The notes beneath the pieces are model-generated. The model searched no databases. It had not been told where the DNA came from and saw nothing but the letters and a program-made list of their open reading frames with translations. Shown piece after piece: positions 12,859 to 50,221 of a stretch of DNA of 64,000 bases. This stretch comes from Nitrosopumilus sp. (GTDB lineage Archaea; Thermoproteota; Nitrososphaeria; Nitrososphaerales; Nitrosopumilaceae), in assembly GCA_965238275.1 (NCBI GenBank), contig OZ250186.1:1312001-1376000 (forward strand). The letters run 5' to 3'. The translations under genes and the position numbers were made by a program. Each line of letters starts with the position of its first letter. Position 1 is the stretch's first letter.

Positions 12859-12903
12859 CTCCTCCTCCTCCTCCTCCTCCTCCTCCTCCTCCTCCTCCTC
12901 CTC
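12859..12903. repeat. (CTC)15 microsatellite
   Basis: Perfect trinucleotide run downstream of rad50. Confidence 0.95.
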
Positions 12904-13067
12904 CCACTCCTCCTCATGGCATGCTTGTCCAGATTATGCCATCTGGTTGGATACAGGCCAGCATCACAACCTGATTCCAACATGCTTCTGGAATGTGGCA
13001 TACCCGAAACATTCCTGCTGCAGCGTCCGACTTATGTTTAAATAATGTCGGCAAACTTTTTGACGCA

Positions 13068-14165: not shown

Positions 14166-14675
14166 ATGCGAACCCCCGTGAAACTGCCAGATTCCCTAAG
14201 AGATCACATGAAGGCCCCGCTGGGCGTGTTGCTTCCGGAAGGCAGTACCGGCACGGATGAGATTCAAAGCCATCTGCCAAAGGACGCCTACGTCATAACC
14301 GTGGGCGACAGGACCACTGAGAGGATGATCGGCCTTGGCATTGTTCCGTCCCTCCAGATAGTCGACGGCCTGGAGAAGCGAAAGAAGCGAAGGCCTCCCG
14401 CACTGTGTGGCGCAACCGAGATTACCACTGACAATCCTGCAGCAGAGATCACCACCCAGAGCATTCGGGCAATCCAAACCGCCCTTGCAATGCCGCCTCC
14501 CGTGAGGCTGCACGTCAACGGCGAAGAAGACCTGCTGGTGATTCCTGCCTGCATTCACGCACCTGCCAATGCCGTAGTCCTGTATGGCCAGCCAGACGAG
14601 GGACTTGTGGTGGTACGCGTCTCGCCTGAGATTAAAAACCGGATGCAGGCGCTGCTTGACATGATGATGGAATAG
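14166..14675 (+). CDS. GTP-dependent dephospho-CoA kinase (DUF359 family)
   Basis: TVGD, IVDG, NPA, GEEDLL, YGQPDEG motifs. Confidence 0.85.
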   Translation: MRTPVKLPDSLRDHMKAPLGVLLPEGSTGTDEIQSHLPKDAYVITVGDRTTERMIGLGIVPSLQIVDGLEKRKKRRPPALCGATEITTDNPAAEITTQSIRAIQTALAMPPPVRLHVNGEEDLLVIPACIHAPANAVVLYGQPDEGLVVVRVSPEIKNRMQALLDMMME

Positions 14676-14725
14676 GCATGCAGAACAGCCTGTACCCCCG
14701 ACAGAACCAGAATAGACCAAATCTT

Positions 14726-16174
14726 TTATAGCGGCGAGCGAAAGTTCGTACAAACAGATTTCTCTGTAGCATGTCCTGGTGCTCTTTCCGGCGCTCTGTT
14801 AGACCTTCCAATATTGTCGTCGTCGTCGTCATCGGGTCCAAGCCGACCTGTCGAATTGTTCATTCCAGAACTATCCGATCCGTGATCCTCGCGCCTTGTG
14901 ACGACCTCGACACCTGCAATGGTGTCTCCACAATTCCCGTGGGCTTGGCCGCCAGTCTCCTCCGTATGGGGACAGTCATTATCCAAAATGTTTTTTGCCG
15001 CGTTCTTGTCGGCATGGTGGCACCATCCGCATGAGGTGCAGACAAATGATTCGCCGTTCCTGGACTTCTTGTCCACTACCCCGCAGGCAGCGCATCTCTG
15101 ACTTGTATATGCGTGTTCCACGCGTTTTGTAATTCCGCCTTTCTTTTTCATCTGCCATTCAACTTGGCTCCGAAACTCGCCCATTCTGGAATAGGCCATC
15201 TCGCGGTTCAACCCCGTCTTTGAAGCCGTCCCGCAGGATCGCCTCATCTTGGTCAAATCCAGGTCTTCCAAGAACAATACGGACAGTCCTTTTGTTATCC
15301 GCCTGGCAATGTCGGCCTCGTTGTGTTTTTGCATGTTTGATGTCTTTTTCAACTCACGCGTTATCCTGCGGCCGATCTCTTTCCATCTTCTGGAGCCTGC
15401 CTGGCATCTTGATCTAAATGATTTCAGCTGATCAATCCTGTCGCCGTCATGCCTCTTGCAGCATCCGGGGACATTGTACAGTTTTTCGTTCCCATGCTCG
15501 TCTGCGACTGCCGCAAGGTGCCTGACTCCAAGATCCAGCCCTGCCTTGCATTTGTCGCCGCTGCCTGTCGCGTGTTCGGGGTCTGGGACTTCTATCTGCA
15601 AATGCAGTTTGAATTCGCGATCACCATCCCCGGTCTTACGCGTGACCTTGCCTGTGATATCAACCATCTGGAACGACACGAGCCTGCCTTCTGGAACCTT
15701 CGTGCGTGGCCTTGCTTCCCCGAGTCCTGGCAGAAATACGTCTCCGTCGTCGCGCAGTTTTGGTTTTCCGCGTGAATTCAGCGAGCGCAGCCTGGTTGTT
15801 TTCCTGCCGCGCCTCATCAGGCTGGACGGCTCGGTCCACCTGTTGTGCTTGTACGTTTTCTTTTTCCCCAGCTTGATCTGCTTCTTGCGCCAGATGCGCT
15901 TGTTGTGCTTGAGCCGGTTTGCCTTGCGGAATTTGACTGCCGCCTGGAAAGCCTGTTTTGAGGCGGCCTCACGCATGCGGACGCTGCAGGTCAGGCCGAA
16001 TTCCCTGCGCCATCCTGTTGTCAGGTTGTTGATGTCAAACTGCGTGATTCTGGGATGTGCAAGTTTCATCATGATTGTTATGTCGTAAATGATGTCAGTT
16101 TCCCGGGAGCATTTCACGATCTTGCGTGATAGTTCCCGAGATTGTGTTATTTTGATGATTTTGCTGACAATCAT
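14726..16174 (-). CDS. tnpB: RNA-guided endonuclease TnpB
   Basis: RuvC-I GLDLG, RuvC-II LEDL, YTSQRCAAC..CTSC zinc finger, RuvC-III ADKNAAKNI; D-E-D intact. Confidence 0.93.
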   Translation of the reverse strand: MIVSKIIKITQSRELSRKIVKCSRETDIIYDITIMMKLAHPRITQFDINNLTTGWRREFGLTCSVRMREAASKQAFQAAVKFRKANRLKHNKRIWRKKQIKLGKKKTYKHNRWTEPSSLMRRGRKTTRLRSLNSRGKPKLRDDGDVFLPGLGEARPRTKVPEGRLVSFQMVDITGKVTRKTGDGDREFKLHLQIEVPDPEHATGSGDKCKAGLDLGVRHLAAVADEHGNEKLYNVPGCCKRHDGDRIDQLKSFRSRCQAGSRRWKEIGRRITRELKKTSNMQKHNEADIARRITKGLSVLFLEDLDLTKMRRSCGTASKTGLNREMAYSRMGEFRSQVEWQMKKKGGITKRVEHAYTSQRCAACGVVDKKSRNGESFVCTSCGWCHHADKNAAKNILDNDCPHTEETGGQAHGNCGDTIAGVEVVTRREDHGSDSSGMNNSTGRLGPDDDDDDNIGRSNRAPERAPGHATEKSVCTNFRSPL

Positions 16175-16258
16175 GGGAGGGTTAACATAGATGCCTGTAA
16201 TTGGGATTTATTTTCTTAAAAAGGATCTCAAAATTGTACGAACTTTCGCTTTTCACTA
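14729..16258 (-). mobile_element. TIR-bounded non-autonomous element carrying only tnpB, flanked by TA
   Basis: Perfect 17-bp inverted repeat AGCGAAAGTTCGTACAA (14737-14753 vs 16234-16250); both ends read TATAG inward; TA at 14727-28 and 16259-60. Confidence 0.8.
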
Positions 16259-16307
16259 TAGAACAATTGACACGGCATGATAAACGCAAATTGCATTACA
16301 CCATGTT

Positions 16308-16670
16308 GTGAAGCTTGACAGTGATCTCAGGCTGGCAATACTTGAAAAAGTCGGAATCTACTCTGACAGGTTCTCCATTGCCGAGCCCAGGGTGCTTCTG
16401 ACCACCAGGGAGGTGTTTGAGGCTCCCCGGGAGATGACCCATGGCCGAAGGACGTCTGCATACAAGTATTACGGAGTCTCCTATCTTCGATATGGCACCA
16501 TATTCGTCAACGTCCGAAAGATCCCAAACGAGAAGATCCTTGAAAACACGATAGTCCACGAACTAATCCACATGAGATTCCCGTATCTTGCACACGGAAA
16601 GAGATTCAACGGGCTGGTAAGGCAGGGACTCTTGGGCGGAACATTTGGCCCGTACCAGAAGAGAAAGTAG
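16308..16670 (+). CDS. Small HExxH metallopeptidase-like protein (YgjP/SprT-like)
   Basis: IVHELIH...HGKRF motif. Confidence 0.7.
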   Translation: MKLDSDLRLAILEKVGIYSDRFSIAEPRVLLTTREVFEAPREMTHGRRTSAYKYYGVSYLRYGTIFVNVRKIPNEKILENTIVHELIHMRFPYLAHGKRFNGLVRQGLLGGTFGPYQKRK

Positions 16671-48000: not shown

Positions 48001-48188
48001 CACGACAGATCGTATCCGGTCGGGGCTCCACAATTGATTCCAAAATTCAGTTAATAAAATCCATTTTTAGCGGAAGTATATTCGACTGAATATGTCCTTG
48101 ATTGACCATCTCATAGGGATTATGAAAAACATGGAAGAAAATCCCATGTGCGGGCAGTTAAAATTAAGTTTTCCTCAAGGGGAATAAT

Positions 48189-49694
48189 AGAAAATATGCG
48201 TAATCCGGAACTTTTTCAAACTTCGTTGACATGTTAGCCCTGCTGTCAAAAATTTATGATCCATTCAATTAAAACCAAAATATGCCGGTTCATACTGTTG
48301 TCGAATCAGGAAACAAGTGACCTGCAAAAAGAGAATAGGGTTCTCAGAGACATGATCAAGCGCCAGGACGCAGCTGCCAGGCACGAGCAAAGCCTGTGGA
48401 GCACGCGGGACGGCTCCGAGTCCGGAGCCGCAGGAGAGCCCGCCCTGCTGCATCGCGTGGAGGTCCTTGATGAGATCATCAGAGTCGGGAAAAATCTTCA
48501 TGACGCGGCGCTGAAGTGCAGGGAACAGTTCCAATACATGCTTGACAGGGCCGAGGCGTGGATAAGGCAAAGCGGCAAATCCCCGCTCTTCAGGAGTGAC
48601 GAGACGGGGGCGTCGGATCCCGGGAACCGCTGCAAGCTGTACCCAAGGCACGCGCTGCTCATGTCACTGATGTACAAAAAGGGCAACCCCACGCAGGGCG
48701 TGCTTGCGGCATTCTTTGGAATAGACCAGGCGACCGTGTCCCGGTATATCGATGTGCTAGACGGGGTGCTTGAGGCGGTGCTTGAGGCGGTGCTTGAGGC
48801 GGTGCTGCCCACCGCTACCAACATCTCAAAGGAGATAGCAGGCACGGAGACAAAAGAGGATCTCAAAAAAATAATTTCCGGGCCTGACGGGGGCATCATG
48901 ATGATCGACGGCACGCACTGCCCCATACAGAGGCCGGACGAAAAACAGATGAGGAGCATGATGTATTCTGGCAAGAAGAAGAAATTCACGCTCAACACCA
49001 CCGTGTGCATAAACGAAAACGGGGCGATAGTCGCCATATCCGGCAGCACCGTGGGATCCGTCCACGACATCACGCTGCTCAGGGAGAGCCCGCCGCCGTT
49101 TGGAAGATGGTGGGACCGCATGTGCGACGAGAACACCCCCGAAGAGGACAGGATCCACACCCTTACTGACCGCGGCTACAAGGGAATCGCAAAGGATCTG
49201 CCCGGCACAAGCACCCTGCAGCCGCACAAGAAGACCAAGAACCACAAGCGCTTTACAAAGGAGGAAAAGGAGCACAACCATAAAATCAACTCTGCCCGGG
49301 TAAAGGTGGAGCACTCCATCGGCAGGCTGAAGCGGTACGGCCGGCTTACCGCGCCATACAAAGGAAAGATTGGCGACTTTAACAGGGAATTTAACATAAT
49401 AGCCGGGCTTGTAAACCTGGACCTCGTGTGGAACTACCTGGAGAAGGGACCTCCTTCAGGCGGCACGCTGGGGCCGGTAATAAACTGGGAACAGGCAAAC
49501 GCCCCCGGCAGCGCCGTTTCAAACAATTAATCCCGTGCACGTCGTGGTGCTGCAAGGCTGCGCACGTTATTTCGTATTTCGGGCAGGACGGGTTCCCACA
49601 CGCTTGACATGACGGGAATTAAATCAGAATTTTTAATATTTTCCGGAATTTTCCGGTTTAATCCAGCGAAATGGGGGGATTACGCATAGCTTCT
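48189..49694 (+). mobile_element. Second IS5-family (ISL2-group-like) element
   Basis: TIR AGAAAATATGCGTAATCC / AGAAGCTATGCGTAATCC (16/18); 3-bp duplication AAT. Confidence 0.88.
48256..49530 (+). CDS. Transposase (IS5/ISL2-like) with N-terminal extension
   Basis: IDGTH.PIQRP, YSGKKK, HD, DRGYKG, RVKVEHSIGRLK; in-frame 12-bp repeat (VLEA)3 at 48765-48806. Confidence 0.88.
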   Translation: MIHSIKTKICRFILLSNQETSDLQKENRVLRDMIKRQDAAARHEQSLWSTRDGSESGAAGEPALLHRVEVLDEIIRVGKNLHDAALKCREQFQYMLDRAEAWIRQSGKSPLFRSDETGASDPGNRCKLYPRHALLMSLMYKKGNPTQGVLAAFFGIDQATVSRYIDVLDGVLEAVLEAVLEAVLPTATNISKEIAGTETKEDLKKIISGPDGGIMMIDGTHCPIQRPDEKQMRSMMYSGKKKKFTLNTTVCINENGAIVAISGSTVGSVHDITLLRESPPPFGRWWDRMCDENTPEEDRIHTLTDRGYKGIAKDLPGTSTLQPHKKTKNHKRFTKEEKEHNHKINSARVKVEHSIGRLKRYGRLTAPYKGKIGDFNREFNIIAGLVNLDLVWNYLEKGPPSGGTLGPVINWEQANAPGSAVSNN

Positions 49695-50221
49695 AATGTA
49701 AAACGGGGCTGGCTAACCGCGGAAAAGAACATCTAAAAGAGACAAAGCAAAAACTGGAAAAGGCAACAACACAGTCACAGGCAGGCATTTTTTATGCTGT
49801 AAAACGTATATATCTTAATGATCAAAAGAAATTATGGCATATGATTCTTATAAAGATGAAATAAAAAAAGCTAAAAATAAAATAGATTGTCTTAAAAAAT
49901 AATTATAGATCTTGAACAACATGAATTATATTCACTTGCCTCTGCTGCAAGAGATGAGTTGGAACGCGTAGAACAGGAACTTGATGATTTGGAATCATTA
50001 CGATAAAATATGATTGCCTCCGTGCTTTGGCAAGTTTGCGGGAGGTGGAAGGCATTAATATTTTTGTGATTTAATATCCAGTATGGCAGGCATGAAATTC
50101 CGGATCGGCTGGCCCTTCTCCCCCGAAACAACACATCCTGTGGGCATGTCCATTTTCTCCCAACTCGGAAGAAAATTCACGAGTCTGTGTACGAGCCAAC
50201 AGAACCGGCGCGGTACACCAA

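Follow-up and report, generated by a model that had tools for sequence, protein, structure and literature searches.

A solo tnpB unit with IS630-type inverted repeats in Nitrosopumilus sp.: a probable non-autonomous DDE-type element

TnpB is usually explained through the scarless excision of IS605 and IS607 elements, and far less has been established about its role in prokaryotic DDE transposons with target duplication. In the passages of a 2026 review that deal with these families, IS200/IS605 and IS607 elements are given neither terminal inverted repeats (TIRs) nor target-site duplications (TSDs), and IS630 and Mariner are said to duplicate TA (PMC13565253). According to the same passages, TnpBs encoded with DDE transposases (ISL2, IS630 and IS1031) and surrounded by TIRs have already been identified, such TnpB-DDE associations are rare, and the transposon-associated motif (TAM) read by Fanzor systems includes the 5' TSD. 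Altae-Tran et al. (2023) described a "DDE-6" branch with an IS630 transposase, a separate helix-turn-helix (HTH) protein and symmetric ends, reported solo TnpBs with ends almost the same as those of units that contain a transposase, which suggested that they are mobilised in trans, and raised a possible link between IS630-encoded TnpBs and Fanzors (PMC10691335). In this study, we analysed a stretch of 64,000 nucleotides of Nitrosopumilus sp. DNA (contig OZ250186.1 of assembly GCA_965238275.1, positions 1,312,001 to 1,376,000 of the forward strand; hereafter the window), which holds an intact tnpB in a 1.5-kb unit at 14727-16260. We believe that this unit is quite probably a non-autonomous element of the IS630 type, that is, TIR-bounded, TA-duplicating and moved by DDE cut-and-paste, whose only cargo is the intact tnpB with an overlapping predicted omega-RNA scaffold and which is presumably moved in trans.

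The window belongs to a genome consisting of a single contig of 2.217 Mb that is 99.9% complete (G000, the host genome below). A sister species of the same genus (G017), whose flanks are 80-84% identical to those of the window, served for comparison, and its whole contig was compared with the flanks of all copies. The two ends of the element are named by the strand of tnpB (minus in the window) as the tnpB-5' end and the tnpB-3' end, and c-numbers denote individual tnpB-element copies in the host genome. A repeat search of the window found inverted-repeat arms of 36 nt at 14718-14753 and 16234-16269, which are 81% complementary. The 17-nt core, AGCGAAAGTTCGTACAA, has exactly two occurrences in the window, at 14737-14753 (+) and 16234-16250 (-), and its expectation in 100 shuffles was 0.00, even with two mismatches allowed. 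Read inward and counted from TATA, the ends TATAGCGGCGAGCGAAAGTTCGTACAA and TATAGTGAAAAGCGAAAGTTCGTACAA are identical at 23 of 27 positions, so the 17-bp perfect core and the overall match that an earlier note on this DNA had reported were both reproduced. The arms overshoot the element by 9 nt on each side, and this overshoot is target DNA, because the sister species has the same bases at its empty site. These 9 nt (14718-14726 and 16261-16269) are themselves partly inverted, at 6 of 9 positions; since the empty site of G017 has them too, the element was inserted into a locally palindromic TA site.

The unit is one of approximately 25 copies in the host genome, where a DNA search matched the element at 36 places and BLAST matched it in 41 segments. 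All 24 tnpB-3' ends start at the same base and read TATAGCGGCGAG, with the exceptions of one CATAG and one TATAGCAG, and all 14 intact tnpB-5' ends finish with CTTTTCACTATA. The TIRs, of 25 nt each after the TA, are kept in all copies, and TA stands at both ends of every intact copy. The flanks are distinct in every copy (21 unique ones on the 5' side and 24 on the 3' side), and homology ends at the same base. The earlier note had drawn the limits of the unit at the inverted repeats, with TA outside both, and had expected further tnpB copies with the same ends and different flanks. Such copies were found in the host genome, their boundaries coincide with the inverted repeats, and the 24 tnpB-3' and 14 tnpB-5' ends stop at TATAG and CTATA, respectively. 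Within one subgroup, copies at different loci share 97.5-98.9% identity, and this near identity points to a fairly recent spread. No other copy matches the window copy at more than 94.6%. As an observation in its own right, one tnpB copy at G000:C1:883619-891004 is split by a 5.85-kb insertion that holds a copy of IS630 family A (888673-890104), and this split copy sits inside another repeated unit, adjoining a different TnpB gene.

The window site is empty in the sister species, where it reads CCAAATATTT-TG-GAACAATTG with exactly 2 nt between the flanks; in alignment, CAGAATAGACCAAATATTT-TG-GAACAATTGACACGG of G017 stands against ccaaatcttt[TATAG...CTATA]gaacaattg of the window. Among the orthologous empty sites of G017 in which both flanks were well matched, the window site and the c426 site read TG and the c1821 site reads TA. 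The c196 and c951 sites, which are homologous on one flank only, have TA beside the conserved flank. Two further copies in the host genome lie in repeated DNA; at the junction, the paralogs without an insertion have AA for one of these copies and CA for the other, in two paralogs each. In G017, divergence at the junction was too high for c1558, c1608 and c1008 to be read, and c1779, c1935 and c316 were among the copies without a usable two-flank match in G017. In all five two-flank comparisons the gap was exactly 2 nt, as expected if the target has a single TA and insertion makes it two. An empty allele with a single TA had been predicted in the earlier note; an orthologous site of exactly 2 nt was indeed found in G017, while the dinucleotide is TG at the window site and TA at c1821. 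Two other arrangements were considered and rejected: an empty site that retains TATA, since a 4-nt gap was never seen, and an element that carries both TATA without a target-derived TA, since a 0-nt gap was never seen. No empty site retaining TATA or the inverted repeat, which the earlier note had named as evidence that would speak against it, was found.

The possible transposase partners were then compared. Y1 TnpA (PF01797) and serine recombinase (PF00239) each gave 0 matches in the host genome and in the sister species, and the control genomes responded; what the earlier note had remarked for this stretch, that both are missing, holds genome-wide. DDE_3 gave 34 matches in the host genome, several of them within IS630-type units that start and end with TATA. 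Element E is 1096 bp long, has the ends TATAGTGGCGATCAAAAGTTCTTGCAA and TATAGTGACGCGCAAAAGTTTTGACAA, and carries an open reading frame (ORF) of 354 aa with HTH and DDE_3 domains. Family F is 1104 bp long, and one copy (F2) carries an ORF of 337 aa with HTH and DDE_3 domains. The tnpB 3' TIR and E agree at 23 of 27 positions, which is the best IS630 match and equals the agreement between the tnpB element's own two ends; the two ends of E agree with each other at 21 of 27, fewer than the tnpB 3' TIR agrees with E. The TIRs of the tnpB element and of the resident IS630 elements belong to one sequence family, TATA-S-Y-G...AAAGT...TGCA. The earlier note had looked for an IS630-type transposase sharing the TIR, and the host genome holds IS630-type transposases of 337-354 aa, with HTH and DDE_3 domains and with TIRs of the same sequence family (best match 23/27). 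The tnpB units themselves, of 1483-1534 bp in the host genome and G017, leave no room for a transposase, and the ORF list of the window has no other transposase ORF inside 14727-16260. Folding of the DNA of the tnpB-5' end gave minimum free energies of -2.4 and -4.1 kcal/mol (z +0.81 and -0.17), that is, no hairpin. An IS605-type mechanism is without a foothold at this end because no hairpin is there, and the IS605-type hairpin ends that would have told against the earlier note are absent from it. That note had proposed that a non-autonomous DDE-type element captured the nuclease gene and is mobilised in trans; its architecture and likely mechanism are supported, with the mobilisation in trans being what we infer.

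Units of this build are also present in relatives. The scan of genome contigs gave 32 loci, of which 16 were in one Nitrosopumilus sp. metagenome-assembled genome (MAG), 1 in another (72% identity), 14 in a Cenarchaeum sp. MAG and 1 in a Dehalococcoidia MAG. The scan of metagenome contigs gave only distant partial matches at 13 loci, and that of viral contigs gave no relative. In G017, there are three TnpB subfamilies with 44-57% aa identity to the window protein, all in units of 1483-1500 bp whose ends are of the type TATA-S-Y-GAC...AAAGT...TGCA. The same end motif bounds two IS630 elements of 1105 bp in G017, and at G017:C1:820977-821130 and 1710257-1710408 pairs of IS630/tnpB-type TIRs lie approximately 150 bp apart, resembling miniature inverted-repeat transposable elements (MITEs). 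Among 61 Nitrosopumilus genomes, the TnpB clade (E <=1e-30) was found in 2 and DDE_3 in 12, and both TnpB holders were among the 12; with two holders only, this co-occurrence across the genus gives weak support.

The 482-aa tnpB ORF is the sole ORF of the unit and fills it. Pfam matched it to PF07282 Cas12f1-like_TNB (E 1.9e-17) and PF01385 OrfB_IS605 (E 3.2e-12). In an alignment with 15 relatives, D214, D389 and C361/C364/C379/C382 were invariant and E303 was nearly invariant. In TnpB-family chains of solved structure, the counterparts of these residues are the LEDL and HADxNAA motifs, which we take to be the holders of the catalytic residues. The AlphaFold2 model, built on 37 sequences, had a mean predicted local distance difference test score of 80.7, with residues 1-401 confident and residues 402-482 disordered. 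Foldseek ranked the ISDra2 TnpB ternary complex (8h1j) first, with E 5.8e-17 and a TM of 0.65 on the target, and next came Cas12f and ISFba1 TnpB; Mimivirus Fanzor2 came 13th, and no Fanzor1-titled entry was among the fold matches listed. The ORF passes through the 3' TIR, and its TAA stop is finished by the first base of the flank; most intact copies likewise have no stop inside the element, the last codon TA-N being completed by the flank. An ORF of at least 479 aa was kept in 14 of the 21 copies examined and was broken in 7. The median ratio of nonsynonymous to synonymous divergence (dN/dS) of the core was 0.22 (78 pairs among 13 intact copies; another intact copy was left out as its ORF starts outside the element), and by this measure tnpB is under purifying selection. 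Taken together, the domains, residues, modelled fold and dN/dS of 0.22 make TnpB functional-looking. Beyond the relatives named above, the protein identity falls fast to 27-35%, and among 1.84 billion representatives 26 reached E <=1e-30. The invariant or nearly invariant residues and the Pfam matches bear out the earlier description of an intact tnpB with a D-E-D triad and zinc finger filling a 1.53-kb unit. The label "Fanzor-like" in the same description fits the architecture and not the protein, whose fold is that of bacterial TnpB/Cas12f.

The 3' end of the gene appears to encode a structured RNA as well. To examine it, the final 240 nt were aligned across 16 copies: 11 of the host genome (chosen from 16 aligned tails) and 5 of the 6 of G017. 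The consensus had 54 pairs in 10 helices, with 98.8% of cells paired and compensatory changes at 8 pairs, counted on the same alignment on which the structure was predicted, which favours structure. The covariation score was reached by 0 of 500 shuffles, and slid controls were paired at 33-46%. The repeat is part of the RNA fold, because GGAAA pairs with CTTTC of the repeat core in one helix. Synonymous divergence (dS) was 0.313 in the core versus 0.069 in the tail (78 pairs, 13 intact copies), and the tail of low dS is the part that AlphaFold leaves disordered; the lowered dS of the tail can be read as independent support for the RNA structure. This conserved RNA is probably the scaffold of an omega-RNA, and, by analogy with TnpB and Fanzor systems, we infer that its guide would be the flank beyond 14727 on the minus strand. 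A separate observation concerns copy c951, which differs from the window copy by a synonymous divergence of 0.87 in the core and of only 0.03 in the 3' tail. Either the omega-RNA/TIR end was exchanged between subfamilies, or the constraint on it is far stronger.

The base outside the tnpB-5' TA was C in all 21 unique flanks of the host genome and in all 19 of G017. At position -3, T was found in 17 of 21 flanks of the host genome and A in 11 of 19 flanks of G017. Outside the tnpB-3' end there was no fixed base (C10, G9, T4 and A1, n=24), and outside the ends of transposase-bearing E/F-type IS630 elements the counts were C8, G5, A1 and T1 (n=15). The fixed C is target-derived, because it is present in the empty sites, and a C belonging to the element was rejected on the same observation. 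Such a fixed C suggests a candidate TAM in which the TA is embedded. The transposase may prefer S-TA-S, and a second filter, specific to tnpB units and acting on the TAM side, would admit only C. With a TAM containing C-TA, the vacated site (C-TA-flank) would be cleavable, and the occupied 3' junction (CTA-TA-flank), having A there, would be immune. It is conceivable, and we put it forward only tentatively, that TnpB has co-adapted to a DDE cut-and-paste transposon in this way: the TAM would be the restored TA with the adjacent C, possibly together with a subfamily-specific -3 base, only insertions with the motif on the tnpB-5' side would persist, and the C at 40 of 40 insertions would be the footprint of RNA-guided restorative homing on an IS630-type transposon. 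If true, this would be a prokaryotic counterpart, in an archaeon of the TACK lineage, of the TSD-in-TAM logic reported for Fanzors.

For the movement of the unit as a whole, we propose the following cycle. An IS630 transposase of the E/F type would bind the TIRs in trans, cut out the element and paste it into TA. A transcript running through the 3' TIR and on into the flank would give an omega-RNA with the flank as guide. After excision, TnpB with this omega-RNA would cut the vacated site (...C-TA plus flank), and repair from a sister copy would restore the element, that is, restorative homing. The parts of the unit and its flanks are collected in Table 1.

Table 1. Positions of the element, its ends, its gene and its predicted RNA parts in the window.
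Feature	Position	Strand	Basis
Predicted guide segment of the omega-RNA, in the flank just 3' of the element	14707..14726	-	Position and analogy with TnpB and Fanzor systems; differs per copy
tnpB ORF, 482 aa	14726..16174	-	Pfam, alignment, AlphaFold2 model, fold match
TA, target-site duplication, tnpB-3' end	14727..14728	.	2-nt gap in empty sites, 5/5 two-flank comparisons
Candidate omega-RNA scaffold, a conserved RNA structure that overlaps the 3' end of tnpB	14727..14966	-	Covariation, lowered dS
Terminal inverted repeat, tnpB-3' end (TAGCGGCGAGCGAAAGTTCGTACAA)	14729..14753	.	Kept at 24 ends in the host genome; within predicted RNA helices 9 and 1
Short 5' leader, from the 5' TIR to the start codon of tnpB	16175..16233	-	Position
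Terminal inverted repeat, tnpB-5' end (inward TAGTGAAAAGCGAAAGTTCGTACAA)	16234..16258	.	Repeat search, copy comparison
TA, target-site duplication, tnpB-5' end	16259..16260	.	Empty sites
Target base C (G on the + strand) outside the tnpB-5' TA, candidate part of the TAM	16261..16261	-	C in 40/40 insertions

Several results weigh against this explanation. The host genome has no IS630 copy whose TIRs are identical to those of the tnpB element, the best IS630 TIR match being 23/27; neither in the host genome nor in G017 do a transposase and tnpB share one element. The empty-site evidence for TA duplication comes from the tnpB copies. TA was read in three of the seven comparators (one two-flank, two one-flank) and TG, TG, CA and AA in the other four; each of the four is one substitution away from TA, and by a rough estimate there are more non-TA sites than the local divergence suggests. 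The RNA pairs were counted with the bias towards structure given above, and a search of Rfam with window positions 14500-16500 returned no family at E up to 1. Among other public runs, three from three studies have contigs in which the window site is occupied, and these contigs bridge both junctions; they contained no empty allele of the site, and there is no sign of ongoing excision there. Instead of marking a TAM, the fixed C could stem from an asymmetric preference that the transposase has on this type of TIR. Part of this also fits a different history, in which the same solo-tnpB element of the IS630 type is now immobile in the host genome, its copies decaying, and an autonomous partner with identical TIRs, which perhaps carried tnpB in cis like members of the published DDE-6 branch, either disappeared or never resided there. 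The TIR match of only 23/27, the lack of any copy pair above 98.9% identity at different loci (with the window copy at no more than 94.6%), the ORF broken in 7 of 21 copies examined and the fixation of the window site in the contigs of three runs from three studies would all be expected of such remains. We nevertheless consider this history improbable, since 14 of the 21 copies keep an ORF of at least 479 aa, dN/dS is 0.22, a subgroup at different loci is still 97.5-98.9% identical, and intact E and F2 transposases are resident.

Two explanations without an IS630-type transposase were also considered. The unit might be an orphan of the IS1341 type within the IS200/IS605 family, in which the apparent TIRs are the end hairpin regions recognised by a Y1 TnpA in trans and insertion takes place 3' of a target motif without duplication. 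Elements of that type with tnpB only are common according to the relevant passages of the 2026 review (PMC13565253), a fixed C adjoins the tnpB-5' end as a TAM or target motif would, and the TIR core holds a short imperfect palindrome. Yet no Y1 transposase was found in the host genome or G017, the tnpB-5' end has no hairpin, the ends are inverted and not direct and lie in the TIR family of the resident IS630 elements, the empty sites keep 2 nt in a manner consistent with TA duplication, and the same ends occur in the MITE-like pairs; we regard an IS1341-type origin as very improbable. Still harder to believe is that segmental duplication or recombination made the copies without any transposition and that the inverted repeat is incidental. 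The copy pairs 828589/2148268 and c614/c642 do have flanks or internal insertions in common, as duplication would leave them, but there are 21 unique 5' and 24 unique 3' flanks, the homology of all copies breaks off at one and the same base, and orthologous sites are empty in the sister species, all of which contradicts this view. In this paper, the non-autonomous IS630-type element therefore stays our preferred explanation.

Other elements of these genomes were noted on the way. The Cenarchaeum sp. MAG (L161-L172) holds a distant TnpB group of 27-31% identity in units of 1.83-1.95 kb, which have a different and perfect TIR, GGGAATTATATAC..., of up to 24/24. Their flanks carry direct repeats of approximately 4-8 bp that differ per copy, for example, TTTAGCTT at L163, and one GGGAATTATATAC-type copy lies in the window's own genome, around G000:C1 1130379-1130573. 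From its ends and flanks, this distant group looks like a capture of TnpB by another DDE family. Elsewhere in the window, 48188-49695 is a multi-copy insertion sequence with an ORF of 424 aa and HTH_Tnp_4 and DDE_Tnp_4 domains, IS5/Harbinger-like, whose other copies in the host genome are 94-99.9% identical. At 12860-12915, a run of approximately 17 CTC/CCT triplets lies in the spacer between an 845-aa SMC/Rad50-like ORF and an Mrp/NBP35-like ORF.

The host genome and G017 together offer a clean natural system, with dozens of solo-tnpB units, several subfamilies, candidate transposase donors, MITE-like pairs and dated empty sites. The C-TA flank signature is sharp and gives a testable lead on the way in which TnpB would read its target when the transposon duplicates TA. 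If C-TA is the TAM, it would show how an RNA-guided nuclease tells a vacated from an occupied site when both have the duplicated TA, and it would provide compact nucleases with a core of roughly 400 aa and a short TAM for testing. Systems of this kind are already in print in the published account of IS630-linked TnpBs (PMC10691335), and the novelty estimated in the earlier note was for this reason too high. In the literature searched on TnpB-IS630/TIR and Fanzor-mariner links and on TnpB in Thaumarchaeota, we found neither a form that is archaeal, high in copy number and always solo, with its empty sites verified, nor the fixed C-TA flank; the supplements of PMC10691335 may list these genomes, and one of them has no mention of Nitrosopumilus, Cenarchaeum or DDE-6.

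Compared with known systems, the unit differs from IS607, which has a serine recombinase and neither TIR nor TSD, whereas here PF00239 has 0 matches and TIR and duplication are present. With IS1341-type elements of the IS200/IS605 family it has in common that tnpB is the sole gene and that copies are many; those elements are described in parts of the 2026 review as lacking TIR and TSD and as dependent on Y1 (PMC13565253), in contrast to the TIRs, the 2-nt duplication and the absence of Y1 here. Fanzor1 in Mariner/Tc1 and other TIR transposons is likewise a TnpB-family nuclease inside TIR/TSD DDE transposons, including non-autonomous ones, in the portions of the sources that treat it (Bao and Jurka 2013; PMC10530073; PMC13565253). 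In these accounts Fanzor1 also has a structured RNA that runs from the 3' end of the gene to the transposon end (PMC10530073; PMC13565253), the corresponding RNA here being predicted. The present element differs from Fanzor1 in its prokaryotic host, its TnpB-sized protein and its best folds, ISDra2 TnpB, Cas12f and ISFba1 TnpB.

Like IS630 and Tc1-mariner elements, the unit has TIRs and a TA target duplication; the resident IS630 elements begin and end with TATA, and MITE-like derivatives are present. It differs in encoding no DDE transposase, and the flanking C, found at 8 of 15 ends of transposase-bearing IS630 copies, stands at 40 of 40 tnpB-5' flanks. With respect to the DDE-6 branch and solo TnpBs, compared by architecture only, neither the approximately 25 copies here nor the G017 units have a transposase or a separate HTH protein; the host here is an archaeon, and the relatives are in Nitrosopumilus sp. 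and Cenarchaeum sp. MAGs. In the parts of that study describing these systems (PMC10691335), as in the present element, TnpB lies inside symmetric ends of the IS630 family, and the 3' end of tnpB is close to the end of the transposon.

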